Source: an uncultured Alphaproteobacteria bacterium (GTDB taxonomy: Bacteria; Pseudomonadota; Alphaproteobacteria; HIMB59; GCA-002718135). Taken from it: a stretch of 64,000 nt of DNA. The stretch lies in the NCBI GenBank assembly GCA_902620285.1, contig CACNHT010000006.1, positions 857 to 64,856 of the forward strand, given 5' to 3'. Position 1 is the stretch's first letter. The number at the start of each line of letters is the position of its first letter. The notes under the pieces are model-generated. The model did not search any database, was not told where the DNA came from, and worked only from the letters and a program-made list of their open reading frames with translations. Below, one piece after another: positions 1 to 27,008 of this stretch. Position numbers and translations under genes: made by a program.

Positions 1-607
1 CAAAATTTTTTGATTTATTTTTATTGATTTTAATAAGTTTATTTCTAATCTTAATCAAAACATTTTTTCTAATCTTTATTAATCCAATATATTGAAATTT
101 ATTTTTTTTAAAACTTGTAATAGGTTTGCCTATTTCTAAAATTTTATTGTTCTTAATAAAACAACTTTCTGCATCGTTAATAGGCTTATCAAATCGTTCT
201 TTCCAATATTTTTTCCAAATAGTATCAACAACAACACTAATATTTTTATTTGAATTTTTAATTTTTTTTAAAATAGATTTATTATACACAATATCTGAGT
301 AGGAAATGATTAAATCAAAATCTATCTTTTGATATGAATACAATGCTAAGTAGAACGAATAAACCATATTAGTTTTGTTATATAAATTATTATGAATATA
401 ATTAATATTTTTGTATTTGATTTTTGAATTTTTATATCCTGTTACAATATCAATATCAAAAATTTCATTTTTGTTTGCATTAGAAATAATATTTTCAATT
501 AATGATATATTTTTTAACCTTACCATTCCCTTAGGAATTCCTAAAGTAAGTGGCCTTAAACGTTCACCTTTACCTGCAGCTAACACTAAAAGTTTAGTTC
601 TACCCAT
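1..607 (-). CDS. Nucleotidyltransferase, LicC/Cj1416-like cytidylyltransferase candidate (C-terminus runs off the left window edge)
   Basis: Absent from the ORF track because it is open at the edge. My own minus-strand translation from ATG at 607..605 gives MGRTKLLVLAAGKGERLRPLTLGIPKGMVRLKNISLIENII...DTIWKKYWKERFDKPINDAES..., with no stop down to base 1. LAAGKGERLRPLT is the G-x-G-x-R-L-x-P-L-T signature of nucleotidyltransferases. The ATG overlaps the stop of the upstream gene by 8 nt (ATGGGTAG). Confidence 0.75.
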   Translation of the reverse strand, partial: MGRTKLLVLAAGKGERLRPLTLGIPKGMVRLKNISLIENIISNANKNEIFDIDIVTGYKNSKIKYKNINYIHNNLYNKTNMVYSFYLALYSYQKIDFDLIISYSDIVYNKSILKKIKNSNKNISVVVDTIWKKYWKERFDKPINDAESCFIKNNKILEIGKPITSFKKNKFQYIGLIKIRKNVLIKIRNKLIKINKNKSKNF

Positions 608-1238
608 TAAAAATATACTTTATAAATTTTAAATCATCCTTTTTAAATTTTTTATATCTTTCTGGATGCCAACCAATTGCATAAACTTTCTTTTTTTTAT
701 TATAAAATCCCTCTACTACATTATCTGCATATGCCCAAGGAGTTAAGTGTTTTGATAAATTATAATTATTAATTCCATAATCATGATAGGAATTTTTATG
801 AATATTTTTTTTTAAATATTGACTTCTAAATTTATTATCAACAACAGAAATTTTATGAGAACTAGTAACATGATTTCTTACTATATTAATTTTTCCTCCA
901 TAAAATAAATTTATGATTTGCATGCCTCTGCATATACCAAGAATAGGTATATTATTTTTTAAAGCATAACGAAAAATTTGATATTCAATTAGATCTCTTT
1001 TTGTACCTTTTTTTTTCTTAAGATTAAATTTTGTATCCTCTCCTGGTCCTAAAATGACTCCGCTACATTCGAAACTATTTAAAAAACTTATTTTAAAATT
1101 ATTTATTGGTATTAAAAAAACATTAAAATTTAAAGTATTTAAGAAATCTATCATCTCATAACTTACAGCGTTATATTTTTCTTTATATTTATTGTTCTCC
1201 CTTTCACGCATTGTTAGTGCTATATTAATTTTTTTCAT
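600..1238 (-). CDS. Class I glutamine amidotransferase-like / peptidase C26-type hydrolase (Cj1417-like gamma-glutamyl-CDP-amidate hydrolase candidate)
   Basis: 212 aa. Nucleophile elbow ILGICRGMQIINLFYGG (Cys103) and GWHPE (His191, Glu193) form the Cys-His-Glu triad of GATase1/C26 enzymes. No synthase partner domain. Sits between the kinase-like and nucleotidyltransferase genes. Confidence 0.75.
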   Translation of the reverse strand: MKKINIALTMRERENNKYKEKYNAVSYEMIDFLNTLNFNVFLIPINNFKISFLNSFECSGVILGPGEDTKFNLKKKKGTKRDLIEYQIFRYALKNNIPILGICRGMQIINLFYGGKINIVRNHVTSSHKISVVDNKFRSQYLKKNIHKNSYHDYGINNYNLSKHLTPWAYADNVVEGFYNKKKKVYAIGWHPERYKKFKKDDLKFIKYIFNG

Positions 1239-1271
1239 AATAAAATTTATATATTAAAATATTAATTTACA

Positions 1272-4223
1272 TTATATTTTTTTGATAATTTTTTTGTTTG
1301 AATCTATTAAAATTTTTTCACCAATATTAAATTGATTAAAAATTTCTTCTCCACATCCAATAACTGCAGCTAACCCATATTCAGCAGATCTTATTGCCAT
1401 ATGAGATGCCATACCACCATACATAGTCACCAAACCTCTTATTTTAGAAGAAAATATCCAATCATATCCTGGATCTGCTGACTCTATAAATACTATTTTA
1501 TTTTCTAATTTTTCTGGCTTAGTATTATTTTTTAGATAGATTACTTTACCTGTAACACGTTTATTAGTTATAAAATTTGGCTGATGTTTAAAGAAACTGA
1601 TAATATCAACATCTTTATTGGAAAAAATTATTTCACTTAATTTAATACTTTTCGTAATATTATATTTTTTTTTCTCAATATTTACTTTTGATCTTAAACT
1701 TTCAAAATTAATAAATGAGTCAGAAGATAAATGAATTAAATCTTCAACTTTTAGAAAATTTAAATCTATCTCTTTCATTCTTGAATGATTATTTATTTTA
1801 TTTAAAATTTCTAAGATTGCATTTAATCCTTTCGAATATTGAAATTTACCATATTCTCTTCCTTTGATTCCATTTATAATAAAATCAAATAGTTGATTAC
1901 TATTAAAACTTGCTTTTTCTTTTTTTAACCAAATATCAATATCTTTTTTTTTACTTAACCAAAGCAACCTAGCATCATTTATATTTGAATTAATTGAGTT
2001 AGAATTCAAGCTACTTTTTGTAAAAAAATTTTTTACAAATAAAGTTTTATAACTGTTCGAATTTATATCATAACTGGAAGGCCTTAGATGACCATATTTA
2101 TTTATTAAAATTTTTTTATTAATTTTTCTTTTAAAATAATTACTTAAATCATTTGAAAATTCTGAAGATACAGTAGGTATATTTGATAAAAAATCGTAAT
2201 ATTCAGATTTTGAGAATATTTTTAAATTCATCATTGTTTGAAGCATGCTTAAAGAAATAAAACCAAATCTTGCGCTTATTCCAAATGGTATTGCTCCATA
2301 TTCTTTAGTAAATCTTAGAATATCTTTTAAATATTCAAAGTAATCATTAATATTTTGTTTTTTTGTTTCATTAAATATATTAATTTTATCAAAGTTTTTA
2401 TATTTTCTATCTAATTTATCAAAAAGGATTTTAGAGTTTGTGATTAAATTAGAGGTCCATTCTTTGTATTCTTTAAGTATAATTTTAGAATCTAATTTAC
2501 TTAATTTTAAATTTTTCTCTAAATGGTTTAGAAAATTTTTTCGATCATAAGAATAACAATTAATTGAAACTTTAAATTCAATTTTATCATTAAGATGAGG
2601 ATTATTTTTTAAATATTTTAACTCAGAGTTTATAAGTTTATTACATATTTTTTCAGATAATTTAGGTATCAGAAAGGAGTTTAAGCTTTTTCTAATATCC
2701 ACATATGGCAAACCACAAAATGAATAAATTAAATTATCTATAACATTAAATTTATATCCTAATTGATGACGAGATATTGACCATGAAATATCAGTTATTA
2801 GATTTTTATATAATGATATTGATAATGGTAATGGAATTGGCCCAATCATTTCTGCTGGATTCCAATCACTCATATTACTAAAAATATTAGTATTACCAAA
2901 TAAATTATTTTGTTTTTTTTGATGGTCATTTATAAAAGATTTAATATTTGATAATTGTAAATCAAAATCATCAATATGATAATTTCTATTTTTAATTTGC
3001 TTTAGAGGTCTTACTTGAAAAATATGTACTCTATTTTTAATATCAATCGCAAATTCTATATCTAGATTATCAAGATTAACTTTAGACTCTATTTCTTTTA
3101 TAGATCTAATAAGTTTTTTTTGCCAACTATTTAAATATGAAATAGATTTAAAATTTTTATAAATGTAGATAGTCTTAATACTAGAAGCATTACCAGAAGT
3201 TACTGTATCTGTTTTATTTGAAGTATCATCAAAATTTATTAAATAATATGGAGACGAATCTTTTTGGATAGTAGTAAGAACTACACCACTAACTTTAACG
3301 TTTGTTAAAAATTCTTGTATTAAAACTTGATTGTTTGAATTACTATATTTTTTAATTTTATAATTTTTAAAAATTGATTCTATATGGTACTCTAAAAAAT
3401 TATCATTTTTTATATTTAAAATTGACTCAAACATTCCAGCATTAGATTGGTCTAATCGATCTTCAAATATAGAGCTACTCCTGATAATTAATTTTTTTTT
3501 CGGAAAAATTTTTTTAATTTGTTGAAGTATTTTTTTCCTATCATATGACCATTGACCTTGAGTAAAAGTAAATTGATCTAAAACATTGGATTTTTTTAAT
3601 ATTTTATTCATATTAAATAATGTATCTGCTTTAGTGCCAAGTAAAAAACTAGAAGGGTTTGAAAAGTCATCAATTTTAATAAAAGAATTTTTATTAAAAA
3701 TAATTGAGTCTGATAATTTTGCGGTAATTTTTTTAATAAACAAGTTTTCTGAAATATTATTTTTATTTAAAAAAATTTTTTTTATTTGATTAGCAAATTT
3801 TTTTTTAAAGAATAATATTTTTAATTTATTTTTATTTTTTTCTTTAAAGAATTTATAACCTACATTAAGTTTATTATTTTTTAATTCTTTAATAAAACCA
3901 TCTTTTAATAATAAGTTAGAGTCAAATATTAAAGTATCAGAGATTGAAGGTATATTAATAATATTGAAAACATCTAAAAAATTTTCTTTTTTCCAATTAG
4001 GATTATAGTAAAATTTTAATTCAGGATAAGATTTAATTACTTTTTCAATATGATATCCTCCTAAAAAATAAATTTTATTTTTTTTTTCTTTTTTGATGAT
4101 CCCTAACGTGAGATCTAATAAAGTTTCTTGTGATTGATTTATTTTTTGTAAAACTGAGGGGAAGCTTTCTTCTGGATCAATTTTTCTGACTCCTCTTGAT
4201 GATCCTATAATTATAATATTCAT
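1272..4223 (-). CDS. PEP-utilising-enzyme family ATP-dependent kinase without a TIM-barrel domain (Cj1418-like L-glutamine kinase candidate) carrying an extra N-terminal domain of about 195 aa
   Basis: 983 aa. ATP-grasp PEP/pyruvate-binding-type motifs GTKADTL... and IIRSSSIFEDRLDQSNAGMFES. The phosphohistidine swivel motif TMYGGMASHMAIRSAEYGLAAVIG (His941, codon 1401..1403) lies 42 aa from the C-terminus, so the PEP/pyruvate TIM-barrel of PpsA/PPDK is absent. The family call is firm; the substrate is inferred from context. Confidence 0.7.
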   Translation of the reverse strand: MNIIIIGSSRGVRKIDPEESFPSVLQKINQSQETLLDLTLGIIKKEKKNKIYFLGGYHIEKVIKSYPELKFYYNPNWKKENFLDVFNIINIPSISDTLIFDSNLLLKDGFIKELKNNKLNVGYKFFKEKNKNKLKILFFKKKFANQIKKIFLNKNNISENLFIKKITAKLSDSIIFNKNSFIKIDDFSNPSSFLLGTKADTLFNMNKILKKSNVLDQFTFTQGQWSYDRKKILQQIKKIFPKKKLIIRSSSIFEDRLDQSNAGMFESILNIKNDNFLEYHIESIFKNYKIKKYSNSNNQVLIQEFLTNVKVSGVVLTTIQKDSSPYYLINFDDTSNKTDTVTSGNASSIKTIYIYKNFKSISYLNSWQKKLIRSIKEIESKVNLDNLDIEFAIDIKNRVHIFQVRPLKQIKNRNYHIDDFDLQLSNIKSFINDHQKKQNNLFGNTNIFSNMSDWNPAEMIGPIPLPLSISLYKNLITDISWSISRHQLGYKFNVIDNLIYSFCGLPYVDIRKSLNSFLIPKLSEKICNKLINSELKYLKNNPHLNDKIEFKVSINCYSYDRKNFLNHLEKNLKLSKLDSKIILKEYKEWTSNLITNSKILFDKLDRKYKNFDKINIFNETKKQNINDYFEYLKDILRFTKEYGAIPFGISARFGFISLSMLQTMMNLKIFSKSEYYDFLSNIPTVSSEFSNDLSNYFKRKINKKILINKYGHLRPSSYDINSNSYKTLFVKNFFTKSSLNSNSINSNINDARLLWLSKKKDIDIWLKKEKASFNSNQLFDFIINGIKGREYGKFQYSKGLNAILEILNKINNHSRMKEIDLNFLKVEDLIHLSSDSFINFESLRSKVNIEKKKYNITKSIKLSEIIFSNKDVDIISFFKHQPNFITNKRVTGKVIYLKNNTKPEKLENKIVFIESADPGYDWIFSSKIRGLVTMYGGMASHMAIRSAEYGLAAVIGCGEEIFNQFNIGEKILIDSNKKIIKKI

Positions 4224-4281
4224 TTTTATATATTATTGACTTCGTATTTTTGCTTACATACAATTCTATTCCAAATCAAGA

Positions 4282-5112
4282 TTAATATATATTATTTTTT
4301 TTGTATTTTAAAAAAGAATTACTTGATGCTATAAAAAATTTATTCCTTAAAAATATTTTATTATATTTAATTTTATTATTATTTAAATTTAGAATTTGAC
4401 CATTAGCTTCTTCTAATATTATATTTCCAGCAGCAATATCCCATTCGGATGAGCCTACAAATCTTGGATATACATCTGCTTGTCCATCAGCTAAAATACA
4501 GAGTTTTAAGGAACTACCAATGCTTACTAAATTATAATTATTTAATTTAGATAACCATTTTTTGTCTTGTTCAGATGAATGAGATCGACTTGCAACAACA
4601 TTTATTTTTTTGAAATAGTTTCTGCATTCAATTTTATTTTTATAATTAAATAATTTTATCTTTTTTTTTCTAGTTATAATTTTATGTTTGAACGATCCCT
4701 TATTTTTTAGAGCATAATAAAGCAATTTTTTATACGGTGCATAAATTACTCCAAATATAGGTTTATTATTTTTTAAGTAAGCAATATTTATAGTGTATTG
4801 ACCATTTTTATTTAAAAATTCTTTTGTTCCGTCTAAAGGATCTATCATCCAGAAAGAACTCCACTTTCTTCTAACTTTGTAAGAGATAGATTTATTTTCT
4901 TCTGATATTATTTTAAAATTTTCATTTATTCTCTTTAAACCTTTCATTATAATATTATTTGAGTTTAAATCAGCTTGTGTTAATGGGCTTTTATCTTTTT
5001 TAAAATTTAAAGCTTTAGGTTTTTTGTAAAATTTTAAGGTTTCTTCACCAGCTTGTATAGCTAATTTTAAAATACTCTGTATATTATTTTCGAGATTAAA
5101 TTTTTTTTTCAT
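4282..5112 (-). CDS. cysQ: 3'(2'),5'-bisphosphate nucleotidase (inositol monophosphatase superfamily)
   Basis: 276 aa. Metal-binding motif WMIDPLDGTKEF. C-terminal IGSSLKLCILADGQADVYPRF...WDIAAG closely resembles the E. coli CysQ signature as I recall it. Confidence 0.85.
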   Translation of the reverse strand: MKKKFNLENNIQSILKLAIQAGEETLKFYKKPKALNFKKDKSPLTQADLNSNNIIMKGLKRINENFKIISEENKSISYKVRRKWSSFWMIDPLDGTKEFLNKNGQYTINIAYLKNNKPIFGVIYAPYKKLLYYALKNKGSFKHKIITRKKKIKLFNYKNKIECRNYFKKINVVASRSHSSEQDKKWLSKLNNYNLVSIGSSLKLCILADGQADVYPRFVGSSEWDIAAGNIILEEANGQILNLNNNKIKYNKIFLRNKFFIASSNSFLKYKKNNIY

Positions 5113-5123
5113 ATTTTTGAATA

Positions 5124-5200
5124 TGGTAGCGGAGGAGGGATTTGAACCCCCGACATCACGAATATGAGCCGTGCGCTCTGACCAACTGAGCTACTCCGCC
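5124..5200 (-). tRNA. tRNA with CAU anticodon (elongator tRNA-Met most likely; lysidine-modified tRNA-Ile2 not excluded), CCA encoded
   Basis: The reverse complement reads GGCGGAG TA GCTC AGTTGGTCA GAGC G CACGG CTCATAT TCGTG ATGTC GGGGG TTCAAAT CCCTC CTCCGCT ACCA, which folds as a cloverleaf with anticodon CAT. It lacks the three G-C pairs in the anticodon stem and the C1xA72 mismatch of initiator tRNA. Position 1-72 is a G-U pair. Confidence 0.9.
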
Positions 5201-5209
5201 AAATTCAAT

Positions 5210-5545
5210 TTATAAACTAAATGACTCTCCACACCCACAAGTACTTTTCTCATTTGGATTGTCAAAAACAAATCTTGAGCCAAGCTTTTCTTCCTTATAA
5301 TCCATAACAGATCCTAATAAAAACATAGTAGCCTTTGGATCGATTAAAACTTTTGCTCCATCTTGAAGAATAATTTCAAAATTTTTTAAATCTGATGAAT
5401 TGCCAAAATCTAATTTGTAAGAATAACCACTACAACCAGACTTGTCTATACCGATGACTACTGAGTCCATGCCCTTGGGAGCAGAGGATATAATTTTTTT
5501 AATCCTGTCAGCAGCATCAGATGTAATAGTTAATAAATTATTCAT
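5210..5545 (-). CDS. sufA: A-type Fe-S cluster carrier (IscA/SufA/ErpA family)
   Basis: 111 aa. Conserved Cys in GCSGYSY and C-terminal CGCGESF. Last gene of the suf cluster. Confidence 0.85.
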   Translation of the reverse strand: MNNLLTITSDAADRIKKIISSAPKGMDSVVIGIDKSGCSGYSYKLDFGNSSDLKNFEIILQDGAKVLIDPKATMFLLGSVMDYKEEKLGSRFVFDNPNEKSTCGCGESFSL

Positions 5546-5564
5546 TATACTTTTATAAATTAAA

Positions 5565-5951
5565 TTAAAAAATATCTAAAGCAAGTTTTGCTTCTTCTGA
5601 CATTAAATCCTTATGCCATTTCGGATTCCAAACTAAAGAAACTTCTATAGAATTTAGATTTGATAGATTTTCAACTGATTTTCCAACACTTTCGGGCATG
5701 GTTCCTGCTACTGGGCAGTTTGGATTTGTTAGAGTCATTTTAATTTTTATATCATTTTTATCACTTATTTTTATATCGTATATCAAACCTAAATCGTATA
5801 AATTTACTGGTATTTCAGGATCAACAACAGTTTTAATACACTCAATAACCTGATCTTTATTTATTTTAGTACTGATATTCAAATTATTAAATTTTTTAAG
5901 ATAACTTGAATTTTTTTCTGGTAAAAAATCTTTTAATTGTTTTTCTTCCAT
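5565..5951 (-). CDS. sufT: SUF-associated DUF59/SufT-type Fe-S assembly protein
   Basis: 128 aa. VVDPEIPVNLYDLGLIY...TLTNPNCPVAG is the DUF59 core. Located between sufS and sufA. Confidence 0.8.
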   Translation of the reverse strand: MEEKQLKDFLPEKNSSYLKKFNNLNISTKINKDQVIECIKTVVDPEIPVNLYDLGLIYDIKISDKNDIKIKMTLTNPNCPVAGTMPESVGKSVENLSNLNSIEVSLVWNPKWHKDLMSEEAKLALDIF

Positions 5952-25057: not shown

Positions 25058-26092
25058 TTAATGGACTACTTTCCAATTAATTTTTTTATTTGCATAAAAA
25101 TTCTTAACCTGAACATCTTTGTAACTAGATAATTCTGTCATAATCCATTCCTCTTTTTCTAATTTTATTTTTTTATCATTAATTGGAAAACTATAATGTT
25201 TTGCTCCATTTATTGAACAAAATATCTCTAACTTATCAATTGCATTTTCTTGATCAAAAATTTCTGCATATAATTCTAGTGAGCAAGGAGAGGAAAATAT
25301 TCCTGGCTTAGATGACATATCTGGTTTTTTTTCTTGAATTGGATGAGGAGCTGAATCAGTACCTAAAAAAAATTTAGAATTATTGTAACATGCTGCTTTT
25401 CTTAATTCTATTAAATCTGTTTCGTTTTTAACAACTGGCATACAAAAATGATGGGGATTAATCAAATCATCATGAAATACATCTTTTTTTGTTAAAAGCA
25501 TATGGTGTGGTGTGATTGTTCCTGCAATATTTTCATTTTCTTTCACATATTTAACTCCATATGAAGTTGATACATGCTCAAGAGTAATTTTTAAAAGAGG
25601 AAATTTTTTTCTAATAATGCTTAATTCATCATCTATAAAATATTTTTCTCTATCAAAAATATCTATATCTTCAGCTACTTTTTCACCGTGTATTAGTAAT
25701 GGACTTTTTTCTTCTTCTAAAATCTCTAAAAATTTAAAGATTTTCGAAATGTCACTAACTCCATGACTTGAGTTTGTAGTTGCATTTGAGGGATAAAGTT
25801 TAGACCCAAAGAAAACTTTATTTTGCATACCTTTTCTAAAATCTTCTAAATCTAAATTTTCATTTAAATAACAAGGTATCAGTGGTTCAAAATTATTACT
25901 AGATGCATTATTTAAAAGCTCTTTATAAGCAGAAGCTTTATTAGTATCTGTTATGGGAATTTCTGTATTTGGCATTGCAACACATCTATTATTTATTCTT
26001 GAGGAGAAATTAGTAACCATTTCTAACATGTCACCTTCTCTAAAATGTATATGCCAATCATCGGGCTGAATTATTTCAATTTTTTTATTCAC
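25058..26092 (-). CDS. pyrC: Dihydroorotase (homodimeric, E. coli PyrC type)
   Basis: 344 aa. PDDWHIHFREG metal ligands, TLEHVS, FLGTDSAPH. Confidence 0.85.
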   Translation of the reverse strand: MNKKIEIIQPDDWHIHFREGDMLEMVTNFSSRINNRCVAMPNTEIPITDTNKASAYKELLNNASSNNFEPLIPCYLNENLDLEDFRKGMQNKVFFGSKLYPSNATTNSSHGVSDISKIFKFLEILEEEKSPLLIHGEKVAEDIDIFDREKYFIDDELSIIRKKFPLLKITLEHVSTSYGVKYVKENENIAGTITPHHMLLTKKDVFHDDLINPHHFCMPVVKNETDLIELRKAACYNNSKFFLGTDSAPHPIQEKKPDMSSKPGIFSSPCSLELYAEIFDQENAIDKLEIFCSINGAKHYSFPINDKKIKLEKEEWIMTELSSYKDVQVKNFYANKKINWKVVH

Positions 26093-27008
26093 AATAATTA
26101 TTTTTTCGTAATGTAGAATAAATCTTTTCTACGCTTATAGAGTCCATATAGGACTTTGTTTTATCAATATTTATACTTTTAAAATAGTCATAGCTTTCAT
26201 TTGTTCTTATAACTTGTGAATCTTGCATAAATGGACCATAAATCATATCATTTGTTGGGCCAAATAATACTATAGACTTTAATTTTGTGGCTGAAGCCAT
26301 ATGTGATAATCCTGAATCATTTCCAATAAATAATTTTGATTTCTTCATATAAGCAGCAGTTTGAGTCAATGATGCGCCAAATAAATTAATTATCTTATTA
26401 CTATCAATATTTTTTGTTATTTCATTTAAATAATTTTCTTCTTCTGACTTTGAACCAACTAAAATAAATTTAATATTTTTATTTTGAGATAAAATTTTGA
26501 TTAATAGTGAATTATAATTTTTAATACTCCAAATTTTTGGTTTCCAATTTCCACCTGGAAATATAACAAAATATTTAAATTCATCGGACAAATGTTTTGT
26601 AACTATTTCTTCTTCTTTTGTATTTGTCTCAATGAACAAATCTGAACAATCAAATTTAAAGTAATTAGATAATTGCTGCACATGGTTTAGATTAGATTTT
26701 TTTTTAAAAATAAATTTTTGCTTATGTTTTAAAAAATATGATAACAATGAACTTCTAAAATCAATAATTATATCCCACTTCTTTCCATAACAATTAGAAA
26801 TTATATCTAACCAATGCATATTGTATCTTTTTTTTGAAACAGTGATTATGTTCTCTACAGATTTAAAGTTTTTGAAAATTGATTTAGCAGATGGACCAAT
26901 TACAAATGTAAATTTAGTTTCAGGATATTTATTACTAAAATAATTTATTACTCCAGTTGATAGAATTGTATCTCCAATAAGATTTGACGAAATAACAAGA
27001 ATTTTCAC
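26085..27008 (-). CDS. Glycosyltransferase family 9 (LPS heptosyltransferase-like)
   Basis: 307 aa. MKILVISSNLIGDTILSTG N-terminus, C-terminal FIGNDSGLSHMASA and LFGPT, typical of GT9. 8-nt overlap with pyrC. Confidence 0.75.
   Translation of the reverse strand: MKILVISSNLIGDTILSTGVINYFSNKYPETKFTFVIGPSAKSIFKNFKSVENIITVSKKRYNMHWLDIISNCYGKKWDIIIDFRSSLLSYFLKHKQKFIFKKKSNLNHVQQLSNYFKFDCSDLFIETNTKEEEIVTKHLSDEFKYFVIFPGGNWKPKIWSIKNYNSLLIKILSQNKNIKFILVGSKSEEENYLNEITKNIDSNKIINLFGASLTQTAAYMKKSKLFIGNDSGLSHMASATKLKSIVLFGPTNDMIYGPFMQDSQVIRTNESYDYFKSINIDKTKSYMDSISVEKIYSTLRKNNYCE

Follow-up and report, generated by a model that had tools for sequence, protein, structure and literature searches.

A candidate phosphoramidate-donor pathway in a strain-variable gene island of a SAR11-like genome

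Does a small cluster of genes in a marine alphaproteobacterium encode the synthesis of an activated phosphoramidate for surface glycans, as Campylobacter jejuni does for its capsule? The DNA analysed here is a stretch of 64,000 nucleotides (nt) from an uncultured Alphaproteobacteria bacterium (contig CACNHT010000006.1 of GenBank assembly GCA_902620285.1, positions 857 to 64,856 of the forward strand), which we call the window, and the cluster is a cassette of three consecutive minus-strand genes at its left end that encode a 983-amino-acid (aa) kinase-type protein, a 212-aa hydrolase and a nucleotidyltransferase that is cut by base 1. An earlier note on this DNA had likened the three to cj1418, cj1417 and cj1416 of C. 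jejuni, which build the activated donor for O-methyl phosphoramidate (MeOPN). In that organism Cj1418 is L-glutamine kinase (EC 2.7.3.13), Cj1416 is the cytidine triphosphate (CTP):phosphoglutamine cytidylyltransferase, Cj1417 is the hydrolase of gamma-glutamyl-cytidine diphosphate (CDP)-amidate and Cj1415 is cytidine diphosphoramidate 3'-kinase (PMC11800397, PMC6429109); cj1415 lies downstream of cj1416 (PMC3907429). We think it likely, from the sequence features described below, that the island holding the cassette makes a cytidine diphosphoramidate-type donor by Cj1418/Cj1416/Cj1417 chemistry. The genome is SAR11-like, as the note had said: core proteins encoded in the window share clusters of at least 90% identity with proteins named 'Pelagibacteraceae bacterium'.

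Enzyme families of the cassette

The three open reading frames (ORFs), the 8-nt overlap between the nucleotidyltransferase gene (ATG at 607) and the hydrolase gene (TAG ending at 600), and the motifs and catalytic residues are all found where the earlier note had placed them. The gap from the kinase gene to the hydrolase gene is 33 bp. These are not chance ORFs, since their homologues match with E-values down to 1e-217. In the 983-aa protein the ATP-grasp motif RSSSIFEDRLDQSNAGMFES begins at residue 248, and GGMASHMAIRSAEYG, within which lies His941 (codon at 1401-1403), 42 residues before the C-terminus, begins at residue 936. Pfam finds PPDK_N and PEP-utilizers domains alone, and a phosphoenolpyruvate (PEP)/pyruvate triose-phosphate-isomerase-type (TIM) barrel is absent. 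In the comparison with competing models that the note had proposed, NCBIfam model NF004508 (PRK05849) scores 722.4 bits (cut-off 501) and its positions 8-786 of 789 align with residues 192-981, whereas models for PEP synthase, pyruvate phosphate dikinase (PPDK) and rifampin phosphotransferase (RPH) reach only the ~70-residue swivel domain, with 15-42 bits against cut-offs of 456-999 (26.7 bits, cut-off 999, for RIF_Ptrans_rph, NF041857; no more than 42.5 bits, cut-offs from 598 upwards, for NF005057, TIGR01418 and other PEP synthase models). Judged by its sequence, then, the protein is neither a rifampin phosphotransferase nor a PEP synthase.

Homologues at 34-38% identity carry the Joint Genome Institute (JGI) name 'glutamine kinase'. 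Identity to homologues beyond the protein's own small clade is 28-44%, and across 25 homologues that are 28-83% identical neither His941 (in a GGxxSHMAIR motif) nor ~80 further residues of the core vary. An AlphaFold2 model of the kinase built with 25 homologues (predicted local distance difference score 85, predicted template-modelling score 0.76) has an ATP-grasp domain, a helical middle domain and a C-terminal phosphohistidine swivel domain, and its best match by Foldseek among solved folds is the rifampin phosphotransferase 5hv1 (E 4.6e-23, 14-16% identity); sequence and Foldseek searches of the PDB found no solved structure of the kinase family itself. The L-glutamine kinase architecture that had been read from the letters (ATP-grasp, swivel at the extreme C-terminus, no TIM barrel) is thus borne out by Pfam, by NF004508 and by the predicted fold.

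The 212-aa protein (Pfam Peptidase_C26 and GATase) has NF045546, the model for gamma-glutamyl-CDP-amidate hydrolase, as its best NCBIfam match, over its full length and with 114.1 bits, followed at 53 bits by GMP synthase subunit A. It keeps Cys103, His191 and Glu193, which are 99-100% conserved among 69 cassette-linked homologues, as well as the other subfamily residues R11, R81, D82, E85, R104, H123, H128, N149, S150, H152, W190 and R194, and a 32%-identical homologue has the JGI name 'N5-(cytidine 5'-diphosphoramidyl)-L-glutamine hydrolase'. Because the score lies under the curated equivalog cut-off of 250 bits, we file the protein on its sequence as Cj1417-like and not as an equivalog, so the earlier assignment to the Cj1417 type holds for family, triad and subfamily residues and fails at the cut-off. 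That cut-off is narrow: the non-Campylobacter cassette hydrolases tested all fall under it (63-124 bits), including those of another SAR11 genome (63 bits) and of a giant-virus fusion (124 bits; both below).

In the nucleotidyltransferase LAAGKGERLRPLT begins at residue 9. Pfam assigns the protein to NTP_transferase and NTP_transf_3, its top PDB match is LicC (1jyk), and homologues at 41-46% identity have the JGI name 'L-glutamine-phosphate cytidylyltransferase'; the NCBIfam scan brought up no model for this family. Full-length relatives are 259 aa long, which places the C-terminal ~57 residues beyond the window edge here. Within the visible 202 residues, every position that is at least 70% conserved in 68 cassette-linked homologues is kept (G12, G14, R16, P25, K26, N73, D105, D128, W131, W135, R138, D145, E147, Q172 and Y173), and the GxGxR and PK motifs of the cassette subfamily are present. 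All of this agrees with the Cj1416 type that the note had proposed.

How might these proteins work together? The most likely product is cytidine diphosphoramidate, probably 3'-phosphorylated, which would be made from glutamine, ATP and CTP and used to decorate an envelope glycan. The stand-alone nucleotidyltransferase would convert L-glutamine phosphate and CTP to CDP-L-glutamine, and the Cys103/His191/Glu193 hydrolase would then cleave off glutamate to give cytidine diphosphoramidate. An enzyme resembling adenosine 5'-phosphosulfate (APS) kinase, predicted to be encoded just past base 1, would add a 3'-phosphate to produce a donor like 3'-phosphoadenosine 5'-phosphosulfate (PAPS), from which a further transferase would move the phosphoramidate onto the envelope glycan; CysQ, whose gene lies next to the kinase gene, may recycle the released 3',5'-bisphosphate nucleotide. 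It is because the donor would be PAPS-like that we hypothesize CysQ as the recycler and a sulfotransferase-fold protein (below) as the phosphoramidate transferase. This scheme is drawn from gene content, family, conserved residues, gene order, fusions and predicted fold; from these we infer every enzyme activity, the addition of a 3'-phosphate in this strain, the acceptor and what CysQ does.

Linkage and fusion of the cassette genes

Do the cassette genes belong together outside this genome? When GTDB species genomes were scanned by pattern, at least 592 species of many bacterial and archaeal phyla proved to encode the kinase family, so the rarity that the earlier note implied was overstated; an exhaustive HMMER search for the family returned 1,408 protein clusters (50% identity) at E <= 1e-30. 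We analysed locally 81 loci from many phyla (labelled with L-numbers below; C. jejuni is not among the 80 that came from the species scan). The hydrolase cluster is present in 68 of the 81 loci and the nucleotidyltransferase cluster in 70, nearly always directly downstream of the kinase and in that order, so the likeness to the order cj1418-cj1417-cj1416 extends to nearly the whole sample. An APS-kinase-like gene or domain occurs in 42 loci, and all four of the cassette-linked APS-kinase-like proteins that were scanned against NCBIfam match NF004041 and fall under the canonical apsK cut-off.

Several loci join the functions in single polypeptides. In L065, L074, L083, L086 and L087, which come from Acidobacteriota (Bryobacterales, Terriglobia) and related metagenome-assembled genomes (MAGs), an APS-kinase domain takes the place of the nucleotidyltransferase-like domain at the kinase N-terminus (ORFs of ~974-1069 aa), a fusion of the Rosetta-stone type between Cj1415 and Cj1418 functions. 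Two giant-virus MAG contigs from IMG/VR encode hydrolase, nucleotidyltransferase and kinase as one polypeptide (L095:4639-8460, 1273 aa; L096:4696-8178, 1160 aa); the L095 protein has its three domains at residues 2-203, 225-457 and 470-1271 and scores 781 bits with NF004508 and 124 bits with NF045546. Each would hold a whole phosphoramidate-donor pathway in one putative giant-virus protein. Among the matches listed, one other Pelagibacteraceae genome, the single-amplified genome AG-910-C16 (L068:9986-14229), carries a colinear four-gene set with a short, 784-aa kinase followed by hydrolase, nucleotidyltransferase and APS-kinase-like genes. This unrelated version of the cassette sits between dcd/murA-type and DUF255/yidC core genes, beside a gene for a 1085-aa GDSL-carbamoyltransferase fusion. 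Because of these linkages across phyla and these fusions, there is strong evidence that the cassette genes act in one pathway.

The surroundings of the cassette are mostly polysaccharide genes, and the accessory genes vary from locus to locus (TagF-like, formyltransferase-like, asparagine synthase and EptA-like). Genes for TagF-like (PF04464) CDP-alcohol phosphotransferases follow the cassette in 14 loci, all 14 with the long form of the kinase (below); they are found in none of the 42 loci with APS kinase versus 14 of the 39 without it. This split suggests two donor flavours, plain CDP-amidate and 3'-phospho-CDP-amidate. Methyltransferase genes occur in 29 of the 81 loci, 22 of which have APS kinase.

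Two abundant marine metagenomic variants were also seen, both inside NeuB-type nonulosonic-acid clusters on contigs with guanine-plus-cytosine (G+C) fractions of 0.24-0.30. L092/L093:7008-13111 has a long kinase followed by hydrolase, nucleotidyltransferase, formyltransferase-like and Sulfotransfer_3 genes, and in L089-L091:7542-12553 two sulfatase/EptA-like genes flank an 813-aa kinase, hydrolase and nucleotidyltransferase. Within the assembly collection, the hydrolase gene of the first variant is indexed in 31 blocks and that of the second in 53.

The island, its near relatives and the extra kinase domain

What lies to the left of base 1? Three near relatives, L002, L006 and L007, stand in for that DNA. 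L006 is 92.5% identical in nucleotides over window 5174..1 and has the identical cysQ-kinase-hydrolase-nucleotidyltransferase arrangement. L007, an error-rich sequence that shares 97% identity with L006 and ~91% with the window, reaches ~3.6 kb further and has, past the nucleotidyltransferase, fragments of a protein that we call X, a sulfotransferase-family protein, an APS-kinase-like protein (frameshifted fragments with GISGSGKTT and LYIDGDDFRELMNNDLGYSLEDRNKNAHRL) and an initiator-like tRNA-Met. L002 (85% identity) has kinase, hydrolase, a 259-aa nucleotidyltransferase, an APS-kinase-like gene on the opposite strand (NF004041 163 bits, cut-off 127; not reaching that of canonical apsK) and a gene for a PMT_2-type membrane protein. 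The APS-kinase-like gene that the note had predicted just beyond base 1 therefore exists in L002 and L007, and the corresponding stretch of this contig falls outside the window.

Protein X (L007:5001-5958, as fragments; L009:15023-16288) is ~400-430 aa long and has a hydrophobic segment at its N-terminus and a GDSL/SGNH signature, though a weak one; no Pfam family passed the threshold, and the PDB gave no relative. It recurs by the cassette in nine loci besides L007, among them L008, L037, L043, L049, L052, L072, L078 and L082 in distant phyla, and is a candidate transferase or esterase. All six genes of the L007 set (kinase, hydrolase, nucleotidyltransferase, APS kinase, X and sulfotransferase) are together in L009, a Rhodospirillaceae MAG. 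The sulfotransferase-family protein of L009 (16285-17397; Sulfotransfer_3, E 1e-25), a relative of the L007 fragments, has PAPS-type motifs and is similar to CurM and to tyrosylprotein sulfotransferases. The sulfotransferase-family and SGNH-like genes of the relatives, like cysQ in the island and the kinase N-terminal domain (both below), were not among the points of the earlier note.

What is the part of the kinase that lies outside the family match? Residues ~1-190 are not covered by NF004508. In the AlphaFold2 model this domain matches LicC (1jyl) and 3d5n by Foldseek, and hhalign aligns it with the stand-alone cassette nucleotidyltransferases with 100% probability (E 1.4e-39), so by sequence it is a degenerate copy of the nucleotidyltransferase that the cassette itself encodes. 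Where the stand-alone enzymes have the invariant Lys of the PK motif, this domain has Ser23, and their conserved ~35-residue insert is absent. With the catalytic Lys and the insert lost, a role in docking or nucleotide sensing is more likely for it than one as a second catalyst. The long-form kinase, with this domain, occurs in 46 of the 81 loci. Two sub-types are visible among 42 aligned long forms, one of which, including the protein studied here, has a loop 5 residues longer after the glycine motif; by reading of the alignment, APS kinase accompanies 8 of 14 longer-loop members versus 0 of 20 short-loop members.

How is the cassette set in its genome? The features are collected in Table 1. 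The G+C fractions of the kinase, hydrolase and nucleotidyltransferase genes are 0.208, 0.225 and 0.209, respectively, versus 0.291 in window 10568-64000, and Asn, Lys and Ile make up 36-45% of the residues of the three cassette proteins versus 23-28% in SufS and SufB (SufD, at 35%, is almost as high), so the segment is indeed as rich in A/T and in these residues as the note had it. In clusters formed at 90% identity, the kinase has 2 members, the hydrolase 8 and CysQ 2, compared with 251-426 for SufS, SufB and IlvB. Because the 90%-identity clusters of the cassette hold 2-8 sequences and those of the adjoining core genes hundreds, we conclude that the cassette is a rare, strain-specific island within SAR11; it is probably part of a strain-variable island of ~8 kb, of which the segment seen here would be the promoter-proximal portion. 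In a promoter and terminator scan of 1-5600, promoter-like matches were at the level of shuffled sequence and no terminators were found.

Table 1. Features of the island and its boundary in the window
Feature	Position	Strand	Remarks
LicC-like nucleotidyltransferase, 5' 202 codons	1..607	-	Cut at window edge; candidate Cj1416-type cytidylyltransferase
Class I glutamine-amidotransferase-like hydrolase, 212 aa	600..1238	-	Candidate Cj1417-type gamma-glutamyl-CDP-amidate hydrolase
Kinase ORF, 983 aa, whole	1272..4223	-	
Kinase core, residues 192-981 of the 983-aa protein	1281..3650	-	Candidate Cj1418-type L-glutamine kinase
Kinase N-terminal ~190-aa domain, degenerate nucleotidyltransferase paralogue	3654..4223	-	Same 983-aa ORF
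cysQ, 3'(2'),5'-bisphosphate nucleotidase	4282..5112	-	Co-directional, 58 bp upstream of the kinase gene
tRNA-Met(CAU)	5124..5200	-	ARAGORN and Rfam; boundary of suf core operon and low-G+C island

CysQ scores 251 bits with the canonical equivalog model TIGR01331 (cut-off 228.8). Its gene (G+C 0.220) is on the island side of the tRNA-Met gene and belongs to the island by composition, and it is kept in L006 and L007. In L002 cysQ is reduced to a 49-bp 5' remnant (L002:1172-1227 versus window 5123-5064); there the tRNA-Met gene, identical to that in the window, is kept and fused to the upstream region of the kinase gene, directly upstream of which it now lies. This is a clean deletion of ~830 bp, and the flank is rearranged as well, with kdsB and an initiator tRNA-Met upstream in place of the suf operon. 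At the opposite end of the island, L007 has the initiator-like tRNA-Met. An integrated element bounded by tRNA-Met direct repeats was also considered, and no evidence for one was found, since the flanking tRNAs differ (elongator-type versus initiator-like). The known SAR11 O-chain cluster sits between rRNA genes (PMC11898729), and we also rejected an identity of the island with it; the island adjoins the suf operon and the window is without rRNA.

Elsewhere in the window, a further glycan locus was sought in two low-G+C patches (20-22 kb and 26-28 kb) and rejected; they hold mostly housekeeping genes plus one gene of the glycosyltransferase family 9 (GT9) heptosyltransferases (26085-27008, minus strand, in the 26-28 kb patch, G+C 0.225). 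The other genes scanned at 14.8-27 kb are housekeeping or generic (penicillin-binding protein 1a, RNase E/G, M48 peptidase, dCTP deaminase, aroQ, accB, accC, aat and an amidohydrolase-family gene).

Alternative readings and known systems

Several observations weigh against a phosphoramidate-donor pathway in this island. The types Cj1418, Cj1417 and Cj1416 were assigned through family models, JGI names and gene order and not through the Cj sequences themselves; NF004508 is titled 'hypothetical protein', its link to Cj1418 coming from the JGI names and from a Helicobacteraceae protein that has the top score (912 bits); and the hydrolase is under the equivalog cut-off of its family. The kinase N-terminal domain is missing in ~43% of the sampled loci and outside the 789-position model, the APS-kinase-like gene is known from relatives, with its predicted site here beyond the window edge, and CysQ is not obligatory at the locus, since L002 has lost it. 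No methyltransferase is found among the genes adjoining the cassette in L002, L006 and error-rich L007, and because of this the group may be unmethylated. Finally, to our knowledge phosphoramidate (P-N) decoration of glycans has been shown chemically only in Campylobacter.

What else, then, could these genes do? The large protein might be a PEP synthase, a PPDK or a rifampin-type phosphotransferase with unrelated neighbours, as the RPH structures at the top of the Foldseek matches, the PEP synthases among its PDB sequence matches and the generic Pfam domains could be taken to mean. We find this hardly credible: the models of those enzymes stop at the swivel domain while NF004508 is matched end to end, the protein ends 42 residues past His941 with no TIM barrel, and its structural identity to RPH is low, RPH being the nearest fold of the same architecture when the PDB searches yielded no solved member of the kinase's own family. 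Moreover, linkage and fusion with a hydrolase and a nucleotidyltransferase across phyla would have no rationale for any of the three. A different possibility is that the trio makes a nucleoside diphosphate-amidate and that the APS-kinase-like, sulfotransferase-family and CysQ genes form a separate PAPS-dependent sulfation module for the same glycan. The Sulfotransfer_3 match and PAPS-type motifs of the L009 protein would suit such a module, as would a CysQ that exceeds its canonical equivalog cut-off and the Sulfotransfer_3 genes that follow the cassette in L092 and L093, where APS kinase is absent within 10 kb. We nevertheless consider it unlikely, since the cassette-linked APS-kinase-like proteins scanned belong to NF004041 and not to canonical apsK, from phylum to phylum they are encoded close to the glutamine-kinase family or fused to it, much as Cj1415 accompanies it in C. 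jejuni, and no ATP sulfurylase was seen in the neighbourhoods inspected, in which no systematic search for one was made.

Could the same enzyme logic serve another amide or nucleotide (an amino-acid amide, UTP or ATP), or yield another activated group or a small molecule? The modest identity of the kinase to homologues beyond its clade, its extra N-terminal domain and the wide variation of the accessory genes leave some room for this, but the substrates are argued to be unchanged because the conserved residues of the kinase core (~80 invariant over 25 divergent homologues), hydrolase and nucleotidyltransferase are all kept. The neighbourhoods are, in addition, dominated by polysaccharide genes, and we rate this reading as very improbable. 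The pathway to a cytidine diphosphoramidate-type donor is thus the one that we favour. Of the refuting conditions named in the note, each that computation can address came out for the note's interpretation, that on the APS-kinase-like gene by way of relatives. A much broader extension of it strikes us as speculative and rather doubtful: a 'phosphoramidation cycle' (island and L009) in which 3'-phospho-CDP-amidate, mimicking PAPS, would be the donor for the sulfotransferase-fold enzyme and CysQ would clear 3',5'-cytidine bisphosphate, together with two donor flavours, 3'-phosphorylated in the APS-kinase loci and plain CDP-amidate in the 14 TagF-like loci, as a widespread and overlooked envelope chemistry that would include the most abundant marine bacteria and giant viruses.

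What would a phosphoramidate-donor pathway mean for SAR11? Intact, residue-conserved copies of the donor-pathway genes are now seen in Pelagibacteraceae, and, if these are expressed, some SAR11 strains would carry an unusual surface group that contains both nitrogen and phosphorus. In Campylobacter the phosphoramidate group is a phage receptor, so the cassette could bear on phage-host dynamics and on the strain variability of such islands. Its ecological weight is probably small because it is rare within SAR11. In the literature that could be searched we found no paper linking phosphoramidate with Pelagibacter, two matches for SAR11 being irrelevant, and outside Campylobacter the only report found of such a cluster is a preprint on a Borg, an extrachromosomal element of Methanoperedens, with a four-gene MeOPN-like cluster (bioRxiv 10.1101/2024.11.05.622173); a 2022 review calls glutamine kinase 'C. 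jejuni-specific' (PMC9561416). Because JGI annotation already names the homologues correctly and the cassette is widespread, the finding is a new host with a variant architecture for a known pathway and no new kind of system.

How does the island compare with the systems that are known? With the C. jejuni MeOPN pathway it shares three enzyme families in the order kinase-hydrolase-nucleotidyltransferase (and the fourth, APS-kinase-like one in its nearest relatives), the conserved catalytic His and Cys/His/Glu triad, and low-G+C, strain-variable DNA of the surface-glycan type. It differs in the extra degenerate nucleotidyltransferase domain of the kinase, in the cysQ gene of the unit, in the sulfotransferase-family and membrane-anchored SGNH-like genes that its relatives add, in that its nearest relatives have no methyltransferase adjoining the cassette, and in its place, which is next to the suf operon, with tRNA-Met genes at its two ends, instead of in a kps capsule locus. 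The Borg cluster, which we compared by its description only, likewise has Cj1418-, Cj1417- and Cj1416-like genes with surface-glycan genes and two nucleotidyltransferase-like units per cluster, but it belongs to an archaeal mobile element, and there the fusion partner of the second nucleotidyltransferase is a PEP mutase, not the kinase. Rifampin phosphotransferase (RPH-Lm, PDB 5hv1/5fbs) shares the ATP-grasp domain, the helical substrate domain and the C-terminal swivelling phosphohistidine domain, and is set apart by the low structural identity, by an RPH model that covers the swivel alone and by its gene context. The PAPS/sulfotransferase/CysQ cycle, finally, offers the same parts, namely a 3'-phosphate donor made by an APS-kinase fold, a gene of the sulfotransferase fold that close relatives carry in their island, and CysQ for the 3',5'-bisphosphate by-product, but the transferable group would here be phosphoramidate on CDP and not sulfate on AMP.

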